From: a phage
Length of the DNA: 64,000 nt
Sequence record: PZ386953.1
Reading direction: 5' to 3' (one strand)
A program made the translations under genes and the position numbers. The notes below the pieces were generated by a model. That model ran no database searches and was not told the DNA's origin. It saw only the letters and a list, made by a program, of their open reading frames with translations. How positions within the stretch are numbered: position 1 is the stretch's first letter; each line of letters starts with the position of its first letter. This document shows positions 12,799 through 20,843 of this stretch, one piece after another.

Positions 12799-13044
12799 CT
12801 ATAGCTCCACTAGCAAAGTGCTTTCAAAGTGCCGTTCATGCAAACCGTTGTAAGGGACCACTTCTACAACGCCATCACGGACATATGGGGCCATCATGGT
12901 GGTATAATCTCCAAACGGGTTGGTATTGTCACTAACCACAACCACCTTCTGCCCTTCCTTGGCAGAGTGCCAAATAGATCTGCACTTCATCAGGTGTTCG
13001 AGAGCTCCAGGTAAAATTTTGTTACGTTCTTTACGGGTCTTCAT
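12799..13044 (-). CDS. hypothetical protein
   Basis: 81-aa ORF tightly packed with neighbours. Confidence 0.4.
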   Translation of the reverse strand: MKTRKERNKILPGALEHLMKCRSIWHSAKEGQKVVVVSDNTNPFGDYTTMMAPYVRDGVVEVVPYNGLHERHFESTLLVEL

Positions 13045-13490
13045 AGCAGGTATAGCTCCTTATGAAAGTGATCTTTTAATTTCTCACTGAGAAACCTCTT
13101 GATACCTTCCTCTAAAGTGTTTTCGATGTAGTCCAGCTTAACTGCTTCGATGGACATATCATAGATTGCCAGCTCTAAGCTGTCAAGTCCCATCATAGCA
13201 TGAACCATAAGATTTTCATCTTCAGATACATTCAGGGGACTTCCTATAACATCTGGAGGCAGAATAGTTTCCCAATTATTCTGGGTGGTAGTTCTCCCGC
13301 CATCTACTTTACGGCGCAGTTCGAATGTGTTCTTAGTGTAGAACACTTCATAAGAAACGATACGACTGTCACTCTCATAATAAACGAAGTTCAGGTAGGA
13401 GCCTAGCCGCAGTCGGCAAACTTCCACCCCAAACCATTGTTTCTTATAAGAATTCAGGCTAATGCTGTCGCATTCACGTTTGCTCAACAC
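13041..13490 (-). CDS. hypothetical protein
   Basis: 149-aa ORF. Confidence 0.45.
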   Translation of the reverse strand: MLSKRECDSISLNSYKKQWFGVEVCRLRLGSYLNFVYYESDSRIVSYEVFYTKNTFELRRKVDGGRTTTQNNWETILPPDVIGSPLNVSEDENLMVHAMMGLDSLELAIYDMSIEAVKLDYIENTLEEGIKRFLSEKLKDHFHKELYLL

Positions 13491-13506
13491 GGCTATCTCC
13501 TTTTTG

Positions 13507-13740
13507 TTAATCTTCGTAAATCAGGATTTCTGCTTTAGGTTTTCGTGCTTTCAGGTCCAGCTCTATCCAGTGCACCATAGCTGTTTCAAGAAAAACAGCT
13601 TGGATGCATCCGTCCTCAGCGTGCCCCACCAACATAACGAGATCTTCACCTTCGTCATCTGCATCACGAACATAAAGAATCTCTCCAGATTCGAAGTCTT
13701 TCACAACCTGATTGCTAGATAATTTTCTAATTTTTGCCAT
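13507..13740 (-). CDS. small protein, possible divergent member of the adjacent tandem paralog array
   Basis: 77 aa, acidic; abuts the three 87-aa paralogs. Confidence 0.4.
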   Translation of the reverse strand: MAKIRKLSSNQVVKDFESGEILYVRDADDEGEDLVMLVGHAEDGCIQAVFLETAMVHWIELDLKARKPKAEILIYED

Positions 13741-13741
13741 A

Positions 13742-14005
13742 TCAGAAACCCTCTAAAAAGCTCTTGTAGAAAACAATCTCAGTATCCACACCAGTCACAA
13801 TCTTGTCGTTCCTGATTTCATCGGTAAGATAGGTGTCAAAACGCAGAACCTGTGTGGTGTTGTCACACATCCACTCAGCTGTGACCATTGCGAAAATCTT
13901 AGCATCTTCATTATCTGGTGTGAATGTTACCACCTCACCGCACTTAAACTTTTCGATAGGCTGAGTGTTAGCTTTCGGTTCTGCGATAGTGATTTTTGTG
14001 GTCAT
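13742..14005 (-). CDS. tandem paralog 1 (87 aa)
   Basis: Same length and shared motifs with the next two genes (CGEVVTF / CGTVVSC / APGTVVMF; all start MTT/MAT). Confidence 0.5.
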   Translation of the reverse strand: MTTKITIAEPKANTQPIEKFKCGEVVTFTPDNEDAKIFAMVTAEWMCDNTTQVLRFDTYLTDEIRNDKIVTGVDTEIVFYKSFLEGF

Positions 14006-14268
14006 TATTCTCCTCCTTCTTTTGAATAGCTTGTCTCTCCAAGGATGGTAATTTTGGTGTCAAGCTCTGTAACTTTCATGTTTGGCGGCAGATCGTACAA
14101 CTCATTATTTTCTAAATCGAACCCCCACACACAATGTTCTCCTGTTTTGACAATCATAACTATGTTTTGAATGCCGTCTCCGTCGCAACTTACCACGGTC
14201 CCACACGGAAAACTGTCTGCACGCTTTTTGTTCTTCACCTTAGAATTGAATACAATGCTGGTAGCCAT
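14005..14268 (-). CDS. tandem paralog 2 (87 aa)
   Basis: See paralog 1; ATGA start-stop overlaps. Confidence 0.5.
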   Translation of the reverse strand: MATSIVFNSKVKNKKRADSFPCGTVVSCDGDGIQNIVMIVKTGEHCVWGFDLENNELYDLPPNMKVTELDTKITILGETSYSKEGGE

Positions 14269-14531
14269 TATTGTTCCTCCACCATAACTTCGCCAAGAAT
14301 TTCTATGCAGGCATCCATTTCTGTAACAACCAAACTGTGAGGCAGTTCTACAAACACCTTTCTGAACAGGTCAAATACCCCAACATATATGTTTGCAGGA
14401 TGTGATTTTACAACAAGTGCTGTATTCACATCCCCAAGTTCATCAACAAACATCACCACAGTGCCTGGAGCTACTGAGGACAGATACTTCTTAGTTTTAC
14501 GGTTTGATGCAAATTTTAACTCTGTTGCCAT
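14268..14531 (-). CDS. tandem paralog 3 (87 aa)
   Basis: See paralog 1. Confidence 0.5.
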   Translation of the reverse strand: MATELKFASNRKTKKYLSSVAPGTVVMFVDELGDVNTALVVKSHPANIYVGVFDLFRKVFVELPHSLVVTEMDACIEILGEVMVEEQ

Positions 14532-14546
14532 AAATAACCTCCTCTC

Positions 14547-16028
14547 TTACTTAGCGTACTCGATTAATTCCACAGTTTTCCCAAAGCTCGGGATATAATT
14601 TTTATTATACCCCTCAGTGAGGACCCATAGAGTATCGTACTTTTTCCACTTGTTGTCAACAACCTTTTGTTCAAAGTTATGCTCAAAGTATAGGTCGGTC
14701 AGGACGATGACATCTTTTGCATTAGGTATGTTGGCATCCAGATACTCGAACACGCAAGCAGCTGTTGTGCCCCATGTTGAGTGGACCTCATAGTTGACCA
14801 TCTCGTCTATGTTGCCGCGAGTGTATACTTTAACCTCTCCAACCTCAGTTGACCAACAGAACATTGTAACCTTAAACTCTTTATACAGATTGCACAATCC
14901 GGTGATTTCATTGAACATTTTCTTTAAAGTTCTTTGAGAGATCGAGCCAGAAACGTCTAAAGCCACCACAATATCTATAGTGTTTTCCGGATTACGACCA
15001 GGAACAATAACGTGCTGGTTCTTGTTTATAGCCCCAACTTTTCGCATTGTGCTGGTCAAAGACCCAGATCGGCGACCAGGTTTTCTGTAGGTCAGTTCGG
15101 CCTTTCTTTTAGACAACATACGTTGCTTAATGATGTCTATATAGTTGATTACAGGCTTACCTCTGTTCTTGACAAACTCACGCACCGCCTCAGGGCAACG
15201 GCCTCCGGACGCTTGCATTGCTGCCTCCAGCATATCACCAGAGTCCTGCATGGCCTGATCTTTATCAGATTGGCTGATTACAGGTTGTGGCTGATCATAC
15301 CCCATAGCCTTTCCAAGATTATCACTGGTGCCACCGTTCCCACTCATGTGATCATCGGTTTGTCGCTTATCACTTTGAGAGTTCTCACCTTTACCGTTCT
15401 TACTTTTACCGTTATTCTGATCTCTTTGCTTATCAAGAACTGCATAAACGTTCTCAGCAATCCATCCATGAAACTTCATGTCGCAGTAGCAGCTGGCTAA
15501 GAAGCCAAAAGGCTTACCTTTCATGAACGTAGTGCTTTTCCCCTTCGGGAAGAAAACACAAGGAGGTTTGCTAAAGTCAACCACAAGGCCTGTGTTGATA
15601 ACGTGATCACAAGCAATATTGAACAGTTCCGGCTCAAAGCTTTTACCACGGACTAGGTGATCACAGATAATATGCCCCACCTCATGTGACAGAAGGAAGG
15701 CCACCTCTTTCACAGATTTTGGGGAATAGAAAACTTCAGCCATCTCAAACTGCTCGTCAGTTAGAGAAGCCTTAAGAATAGCCTTGCGTTCATCAGCCAA
15801 TCCCATAATGAACTCAGGACTGTAATAGATGCGTTTATGGTCGGTTGCCATGGTGGAGCACCATGTGTGGTTTTCTACGAACTGCAACCCTGACAGTAGT
15901 GTGCCATAAAACGGCAACTTTTCAAGGAGATACATACGTGCAGCCTGCAACATTCTCAGGGCATCATCTTTCTGCGAGGCAATGATTTCTGAACTTCTGC
16001 TATCCATTAAAACTCCAGGAGGGGCCAT
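14547..16028 (-). CDS. HExxH metallopeptidase-like + von Willebrand factor A (VWA) domain protein
   Basis: LLSHEVGHIICDH (HExxH) in N-terminal half; VWA MIDAS motif DxSxS as VVALDVSGSIS in C-terminal half; domain pairing typical of MoxR-associated VWA proteins. Confidence 0.65.
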   Translation of the reverse strand: MAPPGVLMDSRSSEIIASQKDDALRMLQAARMYLLEKLPFYGTLLSGLQFVENHTWCSTMATDHKRIYYSPEFIMGLADERKAILKASLTDEQFEMAEVFYSPKSVKEVAFLLSHEVGHIICDHLVRGKSFEPELFNIACDHVINTGLVVDFSKPPCVFFPKGKSTTFMKGKPFGFLASCYCDMKFHGWIAENVYAVLDKQRDQNNGKSKNGKGENSQSDKRQTDDHMSGNGGTSDNLGKAMGYDQPQPVISQSDKDQAMQDSGDMLEAAMQASGGRCPEAVREFVKNRGKPVINYIDIIKQRMLSKRKAELTYRKPGRRSGSLTSTMRKVGAINKNQHVIVPGRNPENTIDIVVALDVSGSISQRTLKKMFNEITGLCNLYKEFKVTMFCWSTEVGEVKVYTRGNIDEMVNYEVHSTWGTTAACVFEYLDANIPNAKDVIVLTDLYFEHNFEQKVVDNKWKKYDTLWVLTEGYNKNYIPSFGKTVELIEYAK

Positions 16029-16040
16029 TGGCCCCTGTCA

Positions 16041-17081
16041 TTATTTAACGTGTTTGAAAATACCTGCCAACTCGGTCATTGTCATGCGGGTGGTCTTCAT
16101 AAGATCTGTCATAGCTTTCTCCATAATTGGAGATACTACCATAAAGTTTCCTTTAGTGAAACCTTTATTCCAGTCGGTCACCAACAGGGGTTTAAGTCCA
16201 GCTCCAAGACGTTCACCAGTTAAAGCACAGCATTTGCGAATATACGAACTCTTAAATTGGCTGAACGACAGATCAACTTTCATACCTACATCGTAGAACG
16301 TTTGACAATAGAAAGTGTAAGCTTTGGCAATCTCAACATCATCAGGTAGTGCAGGAACCTCTTCTGTAAGCCCCTCTTCGACCTCCTGAGTCTCTTTTTC
16401 CTCTTCATGCACCTGTTGCGTCATTTCTTCAATCTCTTCTGTGATAGGCTCGTTTACAATGTCGGAAATGTGCTTCTTGGGTGCACGATAAGTAACTTTA
16501 GACATCGGTAGCATATCTTCCTCCTCTTCTTCGTCAAAGAGTGCTAGTTTATCCTCTTCCGTTCCATATTGCAAGATGAAATCTTCAAAAGTATAATCAC
16601 CTTTCAATTTCTCCATACGCTCTTCGCTCAGGTGGAGCATCATCTGCTGGACAATTTTTCGATCAGTTTCGTCTTTAATCAAGACTGCAGTCTTTTTATC
16701 TACCAGACAGTCCTTTAGAGAGTTGCATCTCAATCCCACCACACAACAGTTATCAACCGCATAAGGACCTTCATCATCTATCCGCTCCAGGGATGGGTAG
16801 AAAGGATTCCCCAGCCCGTTTTCATCTGTGTGCATGTCAAAAGGTATAAGGGTATAGTCGCATACTCCATCTCCTAAAAGTTTTTTACCAAATAGGAGGT
16901 ATTCTTCCCATGACAGGTCGAACTCTATATCTCGTTTCCGTGCGTTATTCTGTTTGCGTCTATATTTTTTGAGCAAGCGCTCTAACTCTTCTGGTGTATA
17001 ATATTTTTCAAGATTCATGAGTCGTCTCTCGTGCTCTGTAAGTGAAGAAATCGTATCAATTGTCTCAACAGATGTCAACAT
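16041..17081 (-). CDS. acidic hypothetical protein (possible degenerate HNH-like region; internal SD+ATG)
   Basis: 347-codon ORF from TTG at 17084, ATG one codon later; poly-acidic stretches; internal GAGGAGG+ATG at the MSKVTYRA motif. Confidence 0.45.
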   Translation of the reverse strand: MLTSVETIDTISSLTEHERRLMNLEKYYTPEELERLLKKYRRKQNNARKRDIEFDLSWEEYLLFGKKLLGDGVCDYTLIPFDMHTDENGLGNPFYPSLERIDDEGPYAVDNCCVVGLRCNSLKDCLVDKKTAVLIKDETDRKIVQQMMLHLSEERMEKLKGDYTFEDFILQYGTEEDKLALFDEEEEEDMLPMSKVTYRAPKKHISDIVNEPITEEIEEMTQQVHEEEKETQEVEEGLTEEVPALPDDVEIAKAYTFYCQTFYDVGMKVDLSFSQFKSSYIRKCCALTGERLGAGLKPLLVTDWNKGFTKGNFMVVSPIMEKAMTDLMKTTRMTMTELAGIFKHVK

Positions 17082-19389: not shown

Positions 19390-19659
19390 ATGTTATACCA
19401 GCAATATGAACTTCGTGCAGAAAAAGAGTTAAATTTTGACAAAGATATTCACAGATATTATTATGGGAAAGTTAGAGGGCAAGCAAGAAAGTGTACTCCA
19501 ACACTCTTTTATGCCAGCAGACGACTAGCGCCAGAAGAGGCAACAGCAGAAAGGGTTGCGTACAACTGGAGAGTCACGTATGATATTGACAGATTCGATG
19601 TGATATCTGTTTTGGAAAACTTTGAAAACACTTACACACAAGTAGAGGACTTTTACTAA
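19390..19659 (+). CDS. hypothetical protein
   Basis: 89-aa ORF with AAGGAG SD. Confidence 0.45.
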   Translation: MLYQQYELRAEKELNFDKDIHRYYYGKVRGQARKCTPTLFYASRRLAPEEATAERVAYNWRVTYDIDRFDVISVLENFENTYTQVEDFY

Positions 19660-20843
19660 TGTCAAGAAACGTATTCGAAAGTGGTCAAATCACTGTCCGT
19701 GAGTTGCCAGCTATTATTCAGTTTGCCCAACGTCATAGCCGATCTGTCCTAATTTTGGGACCAATGGGTGTGGGTAAAAGCCAGGTGATGAAGCAGATCG
19801 CTGATAATATGTTCGGTGAGCGAGATGACAACCTTGTTGACGTGCGACTGTCAGATAAAGATCCTGCCGACTTATCTGGGCTACCTATCCCTGTAGAAGC
19901 GGATGGAACTACACGTACAGTGTTTGCAATTCCAGAATTTTGGCCTGCGAATCCTGACTGGAGCGGAATTATCTTTCTGGATGAGCTCACTCATGCAGAT
20001 AACTACCTGCAAAAGGTTGCAATGCAAATTATGCTTGACCACAAGTGCGGCACCTATGCATTCCCTAAGGGCTCTGTTTTTGTGGCTGCGGGTAACCGTT
20101 CTACAGATGGTGCGGTTCTTTCGGCGCTCGAAGCCCCTCTGGCTAACCGTTTTATCATTGTAGAGGTTACAAGCAATGCAGAGGTGTTTATTGAGGACTA
20201 CGCATTCCTCAACGGGGTTCACTCCTCTGTAATTGGGTATCTGAAAAGAGTTCCATCAGCTATTGATAATTATGAGGCTATGGCTGAGATTAATTGTCCA
20301 TCTTTTGCCACACCACGATCTTGGGTTGCTGCATCTGACATCTTGCACGATTTTGACAGCGGTATTATTTCTGACGCTATGGCCCGTGTTCTTCTGCAAG
20401 GTGCTATTGGTCACACTGCAGCGGTAGAGATCTGGACTTACCACACCAAGAAACGTAATTTACCGGAAATCGGTCGGATTATGGCAGGTGGCTGCAAAGA
20501 ATATGTAGGTCCTAAGCAGCCAGACATTTTGTGGATTCTTGGATCTGAAGGTTGTATCGCTATTCGCAATATGATGGAAAATGCAAGTATCTCAGACGAA
20601 GATCTTGTCAGCTGCGTGGCAAACTTCCTCGATTTCCTTTGGGAAAACTTCAAGGACGAGAACCGAGATTTTGTATTCTCAGTCTTTATGGCGATGATGA
20701 AACCTAATGCCTTAGGAAATGCCTTGCTTATCGGTAAAGGGCGTGACAAGATTGTTGCTCAGCTGATCAAAGCATACCCAAACCTGATGAAGATTGTAAA
20801 AGAGTTTGGTGAAGAGTTTAGCGCCATTTTGGCTAAAGCTTAA
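19659..20843 (+). CDS. MoxR-like AAA+ ATPase (AAA_5 type)
   Basis: Walker A LILGPMGVGKSQV, Walker B IIFLDELTHAD, sensor region VFVAAGNRS. Confidence 0.75.
   Translation: MSRNVFESGQITVRELPAIIQFAQRHSRSVLILGPMGVGKSQVMKQIADNMFGERDDNLVDVRLSDKDPADLSGLPIPVEADGTTRTVFAIPEFWPANPDWSGIIFLDELTHADNYLQKVAMQIMLDHKCGTYAFPKGSVFVAAGNRSTDGAVLSALEAPLANRFIIVEVTSNAEVFIEDYAFLNGVHSSVIGYLKRVPSAIDNYEAMAEINCPSFATPRSWVAASDILHDFDSGIISDAMARVLLQGAIGHTAAVEIWTYHTKKRNLPEIGRIMAGGCKEYVGPKQPDILWILGSEGCIAIRNMMENASISDEDLVSCVANFLDFLWENFKDENRDFVFSVFMAMMKPNALGNALLIGKGRDKIVAQLIKAYPNLMKIVKEFGEEFSAILAKA

Follow-up and report, generated by a model that had tools for sequence, protein, structure and literature searches.

Runs of small early accessory genes are familiar in large lytic phages. 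The arn.1-4, motB.1-2 and nrdC.1-11 clusters and the ipI/ipII/ipIII locus of T4, together with the host-takeover module of SPO1, are runs of small non-essential early ORFs; in such accessory early-gene regions, alleles swap between close relatives and some members act in anti-defence or host shutoff. Phage therapy and biocontrol make use of Vequintavirinae, whose early genes are mostly uncharacterised. For rV5, genes 11-26 were proposed by its authors to form one transcriptional unit driven by promoter P11, with the structural genes 27-81 lying apart from it (PMC3606486). Neither gp14-16, which fall within this unit, nor any paralogy are mentioned in the accessible text of that genome paper, where the term 'paralog' occurs 0 times (PMC3606486).

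Here, we describe an array of four small genes, A to D, at the corresponding place of an rV5-like phage. It is like the regions of the T4 and SPO1 type in that small, dispensable, fast-turnover ORFs with swapped alleles lie between core genes, but differs from them in consisting of a single paralogous family, in displaying a copy-number series and in that two of its four members are highly conserved.

Genomic setting and gene order

The DNA analysed, referred to as the window, is a stretch of 64,000 nucleotides (record PZ386953.1). Its positions 13000-16100 showed 99.8% identity to Escherichia phages nimi, CarlMeissner and Murica, and 119 phage records were matched; the source phage is a Vequintavirus, i.e., an rV5-like E. 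coli myophage. Sixteen GenBank records of the series MG0656xx, entitled 'Campylobacter phage' with Campylobacter jejuni as host, were 97-100% identical to E. coli rV5-like phages at this locus, and probably represent mislabelled hosts or contaminated isolates. The array belongs to a minus-strand gene block at about 17084-10040, across which the GC skew is negative. In the order of transcription, the features are as follows.

17050-17078, minus strand: candidate sigma-70 promoter, TTGACA-17-TACGAT with TG, a consensus match only, in a place equivalent to rV5 P11
16041-17084, minus strand: first gene of the operon, an Srd-like/HNH-like protein annotated as 'anti-sigma factor' (PHROG 3118, 4592 and 1400; Murica and rV5 annotation)
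14547-16028, minus strand: upstream neighbour, a DUF2201 metallopeptidase plus VWA protein of 493 aa, rV5 gp12/13 (Pfam PF13203, 4.4e-28; PF09967, 2.9e-11)
14268-14531, minus strand: gene A, ORF of 87 aa, PHROG 10698 (E 7.6e-43), first slot of the array
14017-14516, unstranded: variable cassette, from codon 6 of A to B without its last three codons (blastn of window against rV5, copy counts, annotation of rV5, FV3 and Pr121LW)
14266-14280, minus strand: A/B junction GGAGGAACAATAATG, TAATG overlap with the Shine-Dalgarno of B in the final codons of A (direct sequence reading)
14005-14268, minus strand: gene B, ORF of 87 aa, PHROG 10698, paralogue of A
14003-14018, minus strand: B/C junction AAGGAGGAGAATAATG, TAATG overlap with the Shine-Dalgarno of C in the final codons of B, equal to the 3' boundary of the cassette
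13742-14005, minus strand: gene C, ORF of 87 aa, PHROG 12861, rV5 gp15, remote paralogue
13507-13740, minus strand: gene D, ORF of 77 aa, PHROG 12046, rV5 gp16, most remote paralogue
13041-13490, minus strand: downstream neighbour, gp17 homologue of 149 aa, PHROG 6790

The real start of the Srd-like gene is probably near 17018, and P11 is annotated in the rV5 record as a sigma-70-type promoter. In the rV5 reference, the VWA-metallopeptidase is split into two overlapping CDS, gp012 and gp013 (L002:1257-2718), while the window and most relatives carry a single ORF of 493 aa; the split stems either from a frameshift in rV5 or from an artefact of its annotation. Where the window has A and B, rV5 has one gene, which we call X (gp14), followed by C (gp15) and D (gp16), and the Bas54 equivalents are bas54_0054 (X), bas54_0053 (C) and bas54_0052 (D). 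The genes have been deposited many times as hypothetical proteins. A-D match their PHROGs directly and at full length (E 1e-41 to 1e-62), and 10698, 12861 and 12046 are kept as separate groups, all annotated as 'hypothetical' or of 'unknown function'.

The sequence-only reading had described three 87-aa minus-strand ORFs with stop-start overlaps and an abutting acidic ORF of 77 aa. The former proved exact, the stop and start at the A/B and B/C junctions sharing 1 nt as TAATG; the latter is D, which turned out to be a fourth family member by profile, making an array of four consecutive same-strand ORFs of 87, 87, 87 and 77 aa. Between C and D, TGA-T-ATG leaves a spacer of 1 nt. Every gene has a good Shine-Dalgarno, and at A/B and B/C it falls within the final codons of the gene before, an arrangement that, judged from its layout, is the classic one for translational coupling. 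As a consequence, the E/G-rich protein ends owe part of their sequence to the ribosome-binding site.

Common N-termini, a shared central motif and acidic C-terminal halves had also been claimed for the three 87-aa proteins, and we found all of these, with D included in the pattern. A, B, C and D start with MAT, MAT, MTT and MAK and contain APGTVV, PCGTVV, KCGEVV and ESGEIL, respectively, giving the common pattern G(T/E)(V/I)(V/L); their C-terminal halves have net charges of -6.1, -7.1, -5.2 and -4.1, and the whole proteins have pI values of 4.5-5.0 and net charges of -4 to -8. No conserved residue set of a catalytic type was visible among the members, the invariant G23, D73 and I76 appearing structural.

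Homology among the copies

Sequence similarity between A and B is clear (about 37-39% identity, BLASTP E 1e-12, Smith-Waterman z = 19 with 1000 shuffles). The shuffling z-scores were 4.7 for B-C, 3.7 for C-D and 3.1 for B-D, while A-C and A-D reached no significance in this pairwise procedure, and BLASTP in pairwise mode did not connect C or D with any other member. We then used a profile built from A/B/X-type sequences only, C and D being excluded; it included rV5 gp14 (X), the A' and B' of a phage that is more divergent, and the metagenomic P0024 and P0027. With this profile, C scored 23.8 bits and D 14.4 bits, values reached by 0/500 shuffles (maxima 10.0 and 8.3), and D rose to 22.6 bits once C joined the profile. 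When the profile was run against 2,211 six-frame ORFs of the window and of related loci, A/B/X were found at E < 1e-31, the C orthologues at about 5e-6 and the D orthologues at 3e-4 to 5e-3, the D of the window at 0.0037; past the D orthologues, no further ORF fell below E = 1.5. In the remainder of the 64-kb window and at the loci of PVP-SE1, KpS8, W70 and CR8, no extra member was found below E = 0.8. The neighbouring 81-aa ORF at 12799-13044, considered as a fifth member, was rejected, since it obtained -1.3 bits with the same A/B/X profile and an hhalign E of 0.34.

We conclude from these comparisons that A-D are all homologous, with D as the weakest case. With a previous, less rich hhalign profile, C was supported (probability 90.6%, E 1.3e-6) and D was not (E 0.3), and since this profile missed D, the membership of D rests on the richer profile together with adjacency in the array. 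The paralogy expected by the sequence-only reading is thus better than in shuffled controls, by pairwise alignment for A-B and by profile for C and D.

Predicted fold and distribution

The structure prediction that had been recommended as a check delivered an all-beta model for A (AF2, pLDDT 80, pTM 0.67), and the predicted fold is an SH3/Tudor-like small barrel of five antiparallel strands; because Z stays below 8, only this general fold class is supported. The model of D, made from a D-only alignment, was weaker (pLDDT 66), showing five strands at equivalent positions, which lends weak support to a common predicted fold. In BFVD, the A and D-only models each retrieved an overlapping set of small phage proteins (70-90 aa, TM 0.5-0.7); the D-only search did not directly retrieve the models of A, X and C, nor did the search with A retrieve that of D. 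These BFVD barrels, including N4 gp21, proteins of N4-like phages and other phage ORFs, are alike in size and fold and all uncharacterised, but with E values of only 1e-3 to 0.2 and identities of 7-22%, homology is not claimed.

From the well-known SH3-like barrels, i.e., Tudor, KOW, the C-terminal domain of ribosomal L2, domain I of EF-P and the C-terminal domain of UvrD/PcrA, the array proteins differ in that they show no membership at the sequence level. In the Pfam search, no family, Tudor, KOW and SH3 included, reached the cut-off; the PDB profile search gave no match below E 0.66, PADLOC returned no defence-system match, and neither an aromatic cage nor a KOW signature was shown for the barrels. 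Tudor/KOW-like modulators of host transcription or translation, binding RNA polymerase or the ribosome and redirecting host gene expression together with the Srd-like protein, would be a specific version of the model that we prefer below, in which the barrels bind host or defence proteins; this version is weakly supported, and we regard it as a long shot.

The family has an exceedingly narrow distribution. A search of 5.8 billion proteins gave 23 clusters, an exhaustive HMM search of 1.84 billion representatives gave six genuine ones, and IMG/VR contributed two loci only; for bacteria and archaea, 185,579 species-representative genomes yielded no match. The barrel family is confined to rV5-like phages, whereas the VWA protein is spread over many groups, with 460 phage records.

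Age of the duplication and copy number

The array had been read as the product of a recent tandem duplication with divergence. Tandem duplication with divergence stands, given four homologous neighbours; 'recent' does not, given saturated synonymous sites and the lack of a long DNA repeat. The copies share 17-39% protein identity, the proportion of synonymous differences (pS) is 0.75-0.85 and thus saturated in all paralogue pairs, and no direct DNA repeat longer than 17 nt was found between them, so that the duplication is old. Since A and B are closer to A' (about 56-57%) and B' (about 62-64%), respectively, than to one another (about 37%), the A/B split predates the divergence from the phage carrying A' and B', whose VWA protein is 82% identical to that of the window. 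A, B and X are roughly equidistant (36-42% identity). An origin of X as an A/B fusion by unequal crossing-over was rejected, as the sites agreeing with A only or B only are interspersed (best breakpoint p = 0.33).

The suggested comparison with related phages revealed zero, one, three or four copies. PVP-SE1 (Seunavirus), KpS8 (Mydovirus), CR8 (Certrevirus) and W70 have none; in PVP-SE1, according to the notes of its record, which name the rV5 homologues, the VWA gene is directly followed by the gp17 homologue without a barrel in between. A divergent rV5-like metagenomic phage (L011) carries one copy, P0027, at the equivalent position. In KpS8, W70, CR8 and L011, a gene of similar size stands in the place of gp17, matched by size and position alone. 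Three copies, X-C-D, are present in rV5, FV3, Pr121LW and Bas54, and four in the window, Murica and others (A-B-C-D) and in three loci of the divergent type (A'-B'-C-D, L016-L018). Across these relatives, the series shows an expansion of the family from one to three or four copies by tandem duplication within the rV5 lineage. Within the divergent promoter region of L011 and also L012, flanked by a 297-aa gene and the gene for the Srd-like protein, we observed an IS605 OrfB/TnpB-type gene (Cas12f1-like_TNB, 379 aa, L011:1119-2258); it has the appearance of a transposon-derived insertion into the early control region of a virulent phage.

Within 118 Vequintavirus records, A+B were found in 44 and a single X of 85 aa in 74. 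A and B always occur together, the A-type records showing exactly two matching places by tblastn, and C and D are present in 118/118, with identities of 93% or higher and of roughly 90% or higher, respectively.

A variable first slot

When compared with rV5 by blastn, the DNA of the window is 94.5% identical as far as 14517, where the first five codons of the first gene have passed, and 97% identical from 14016 on, three codons before the stop of B; between these positions, no similarity was detected by this method. The flanks of the slot are conserved, with a Shine-Dalgarno and a MATE start on one side and a Shine-Dalgarno and TAATG junction on the other. As the identity ends so sharply at 14517 and 14016, close relatives carry deeply diverged alleles of one gene or two, and this pattern points to allelic exchange by recombination rather than to divergence in place. 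The exchangeable forms of the first slot are X, A+B and A'+B'. Compared with rV5, C has a dS of 0.51, with the neighbouring D and gp17 at only 0.03-0.04; because of this difference, the recombination tract of the A+B/X cassette seemingly reaches through C, leaving the protein unchanged.

Selection on the four genes

A dN/dS comparison across the copies had been recommended, and it is uninformative because dS between paralogues is saturated; we used orthologues instead. The window was compared with L016; between the two, identity amounts to 58% for the Srd-like protein, 82% for VWA and 61% for gp17.

C, window versus L016: amino acid identity 98%, dN 0.015, dS 0.62, dN/dS 0.02
D, window versus L016: amino acid identity 95%, dN 0.028, dS 0.64, dN/dS 0.04
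A versus A': amino acid identity 57%, dN 0.304, dS 1.45, dN/dS 0.21
B versus B': amino acid identity 64%, dN 0.285, dS saturated, dN/dS not computable

Overall, dN/dS amounts to 0.01-0.02 for C and 0.04 for D, with dS of 0.5-0.6. A C-like gene, P0025, was detected as the only member of the family in L020 (4001-4279) and also in L021 and L022, being 81% identical to C of the window. The Srd-like and VWA proteins of this distant Vequintavirinae-like phage are only 38% and 46% identical to those of the window, and P0025 is located directly upstream of the Srd-like gene, about 2 kb from the Srd-like/VWA pair. Its similarity would be due either to extreme constraint or to a recent horizontal transfer of C, and its solitary position suggests that C is able to exist and move alone. 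Another single member, the X-like P0024 (L014:1355-1606; 61% identity to X), was found on a short metagenomic contig that has no VWA gene, where it follows a 211-aa gene and precedes a Cys-rich 143-aa gene; based on this different context, family members can relocate singly.

The very low dN/dS values and the retention of C at 81% in a distant phage indicate that C and D are real proteins under unusually strong constraint, and since synonymous sites are free to vary, it is the protein that is constrained, rather than some DNA or RNA element overlapping the gene. These data bear on the view that the ORFs are of no function, being filler, duplicates in decay or artefacts of annotation, to which one could be led by the lack of a known domain, the absence of a phenotype on K-12 and the very narrow taxonomic range. 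The low ratios for C and D, together with that for A versus A', the intact frames in 118 records, a good Shine-Dalgarno for each gene and the confident model of A all speak against it, and with the substitution pattern largely excluding functionless filler, we consider this view very improbable.

Insertion data on the Bas54 orthologues

Transposon insertions in Bas54 (MZ501093), whose C and D proteins are 99% and 100% identical to those of the window, have been mapped by HIDEN-SEQ (10.1101/2025.11.20.689424). On K-12, its X, C and D are non-essential, with 17/17, 13/15 and 12/12 TA sites hit; the remaining genes of the operon are likewise dispensable, and the structural genes are essential (10.1101/2025.11.20.689424). 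Dispensability of the array on E. coli K-12 is thereby shown for the Bas54 orthologues. In the accessible data, a resampling comparison of K-12 with one of two clinical isolates gave the following values (10.1101/2025.11.20.689424).

X (bas54_0054): log2FC +0.46, q 1.0
C (bas54_0053): log2FC +0.33, q 1.0
D (bas54_0052): log2FC -1.32, q 0.68
VWA-metallopeptidase (bas54_0055): log2FC -2.20, q 0.009
gp17 homologue (bas54_0051): log2FC -2.28, q 0.195

Insertions in X, C and D were thus not significantly depleted in this one comparison out of a study with two clinical strains (10.1101/2025.11.20.689424); the paralogues may be redundant. In the same study, the MoxR ATPase bas54_0063 was reported as an anti-defence gene acting against the predicted system DS-28 of strain CFE311 (10.1101/2025.11.20.689424).

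Function of the array

Both receptor- and defence-interacting proteins had been brought up by the sequence-only reading as places where such duplications are often seen. Tandem paralogues are common in tail-fibre and receptor-binding genes, and the PHROG label of the neighbouring gp17 is 'tail protein', which would fit virion-associated or receptor-interacting products. The genes are situated in the P11-driven unit 11-26, among host-takeover and anti-defence genes and away from the structural genes, the virion proteins that the rV5 paper names in its main text do not include gp14-16 (PMC3606486), and in Bas54 insertions were tolerated at nearly every TA site, unlike in essential structural genes (10.1101/2025.11.20.689424). 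With proteins that are, moreover, acidic and only 77-87 aa long, a virion or receptor role is extremely improbable, and the receptor part of the earlier suggestion is unlikely to hold; a defence-interacting role is possible.

The explanation that we prefer starts from four old tandem paralogues, each predicted to be a small (77-87 aa), acidic SH3/Tudor-like barrel, between the VWA-metallopeptidase gene and the gp17 homologue. Lying in a putative sigma-70-driven unit equivalent to genes 11-26 and, by their layout, translated by coupling, they would be made early and remain in the cytoplasm, where they would act by stoichiometric protein binding and not by catalysis. The partner of each barrel would be a protein of the host or of its defences, a conserved one in the case of C and D and a strain-variable one in that of the swappable first slot. 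That the array encodes early cytoplasmic binders of this kind is, in our estimation, an even chance.

The main rival concerns the neighbours of the array. The genes of the window at 13041-13490, 14547-16028 and 19659-20843 suggest a three-part MoxR-VWA-gp17 anti-defence module, and the labels 'HNH endonuclease' for the VWA gene and 'tail protein' for gp17 look wrong. In W70 and CR8, a gene of about 400 aa, annotated as 'putative ATPase' in CR8, was observed directly before the VWA gene. The barrels might be accessory subunits of such a MoxR ATPase/VWA-metallopeptidase/gp17 machine, i.e., adaptors, substrate selectors, decoys or regulators, with different paralogues directing or restraining it toward different targets. 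Typically, the ligand bound at a VWA MIDAS site offers an acidic residue, and the array encodes acidic barrels; on the other hand, their acidic C-termini are partly encoded by the ribosome-binding sites, and P0027 ends in ...YAHR. The array occupies precisely the place separating the VWA gene from gp17, two genes that adjoin each other in PVP-SE1 and probably in further Vequintavirinae, it belongs to the same operon and is coupled in translation, and even the solo C-like copy of the distant phage is still within about 2 kb of the Srd-like/VWA pair. Yet four other Vequintavirinae loci possess a VWA gene and a gp17-like gene but no barrel, so that the family and the machine do not consistently occur together and the machine does not need the barrels; in addition, P0024 stands beside a 211-aa gene on its short contig, with no VWA gene there. 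Although the MoxR and VWA genes of Bas54 matter in clinical strains, insertions in X and C were neutral where those in the VWA gene were depleted (log2FC -2.2; 10.1101/2025.11.20.689424); paralogue redundancy could mask an effect. Altogether, we judge accessory subunits to be rather unlikely.

Related to this is a reading in which the barrels are interchangeable specificity modules or decoys of the MoxR-VWA-metallopeptidase anti-defence machine, C and D addressing conserved targets and X or A+B strain-specific defences. We would call it quite unlikely; if true, it would reveal a new way of retargeting a phage protease/chaperone system via small paralogous adaptors.

Novelty and implications

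The common origin of the three PHROGs is not noted in the records of rV5, FV3, Pr121LW, Murica and Bas54, our literature search with the rV5 locus tags and protein accessions retrieved no paper, and a search on MoxR/VWA anti-defence and small SH3-like early proteins gave nothing specific. This common origin, the copy-number series, the bounded X versus A+B cassette and the exceptional conservation of C and D seem to be recorded here for the first time.

For the annotation of these phages, three 'unknown' PHROGs can be merged into one family with a predicted fold. Two of its members are under exceptional constraint, which implies a conserved target, and the exchange of the cassette among close relatives makes the first slot a candidate determinant of host range or of the tracking of host defences. 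If no partners are found, the array may be an ordinary accessory family; if they are, the locus could show how small barrels are recruited for host takeover.
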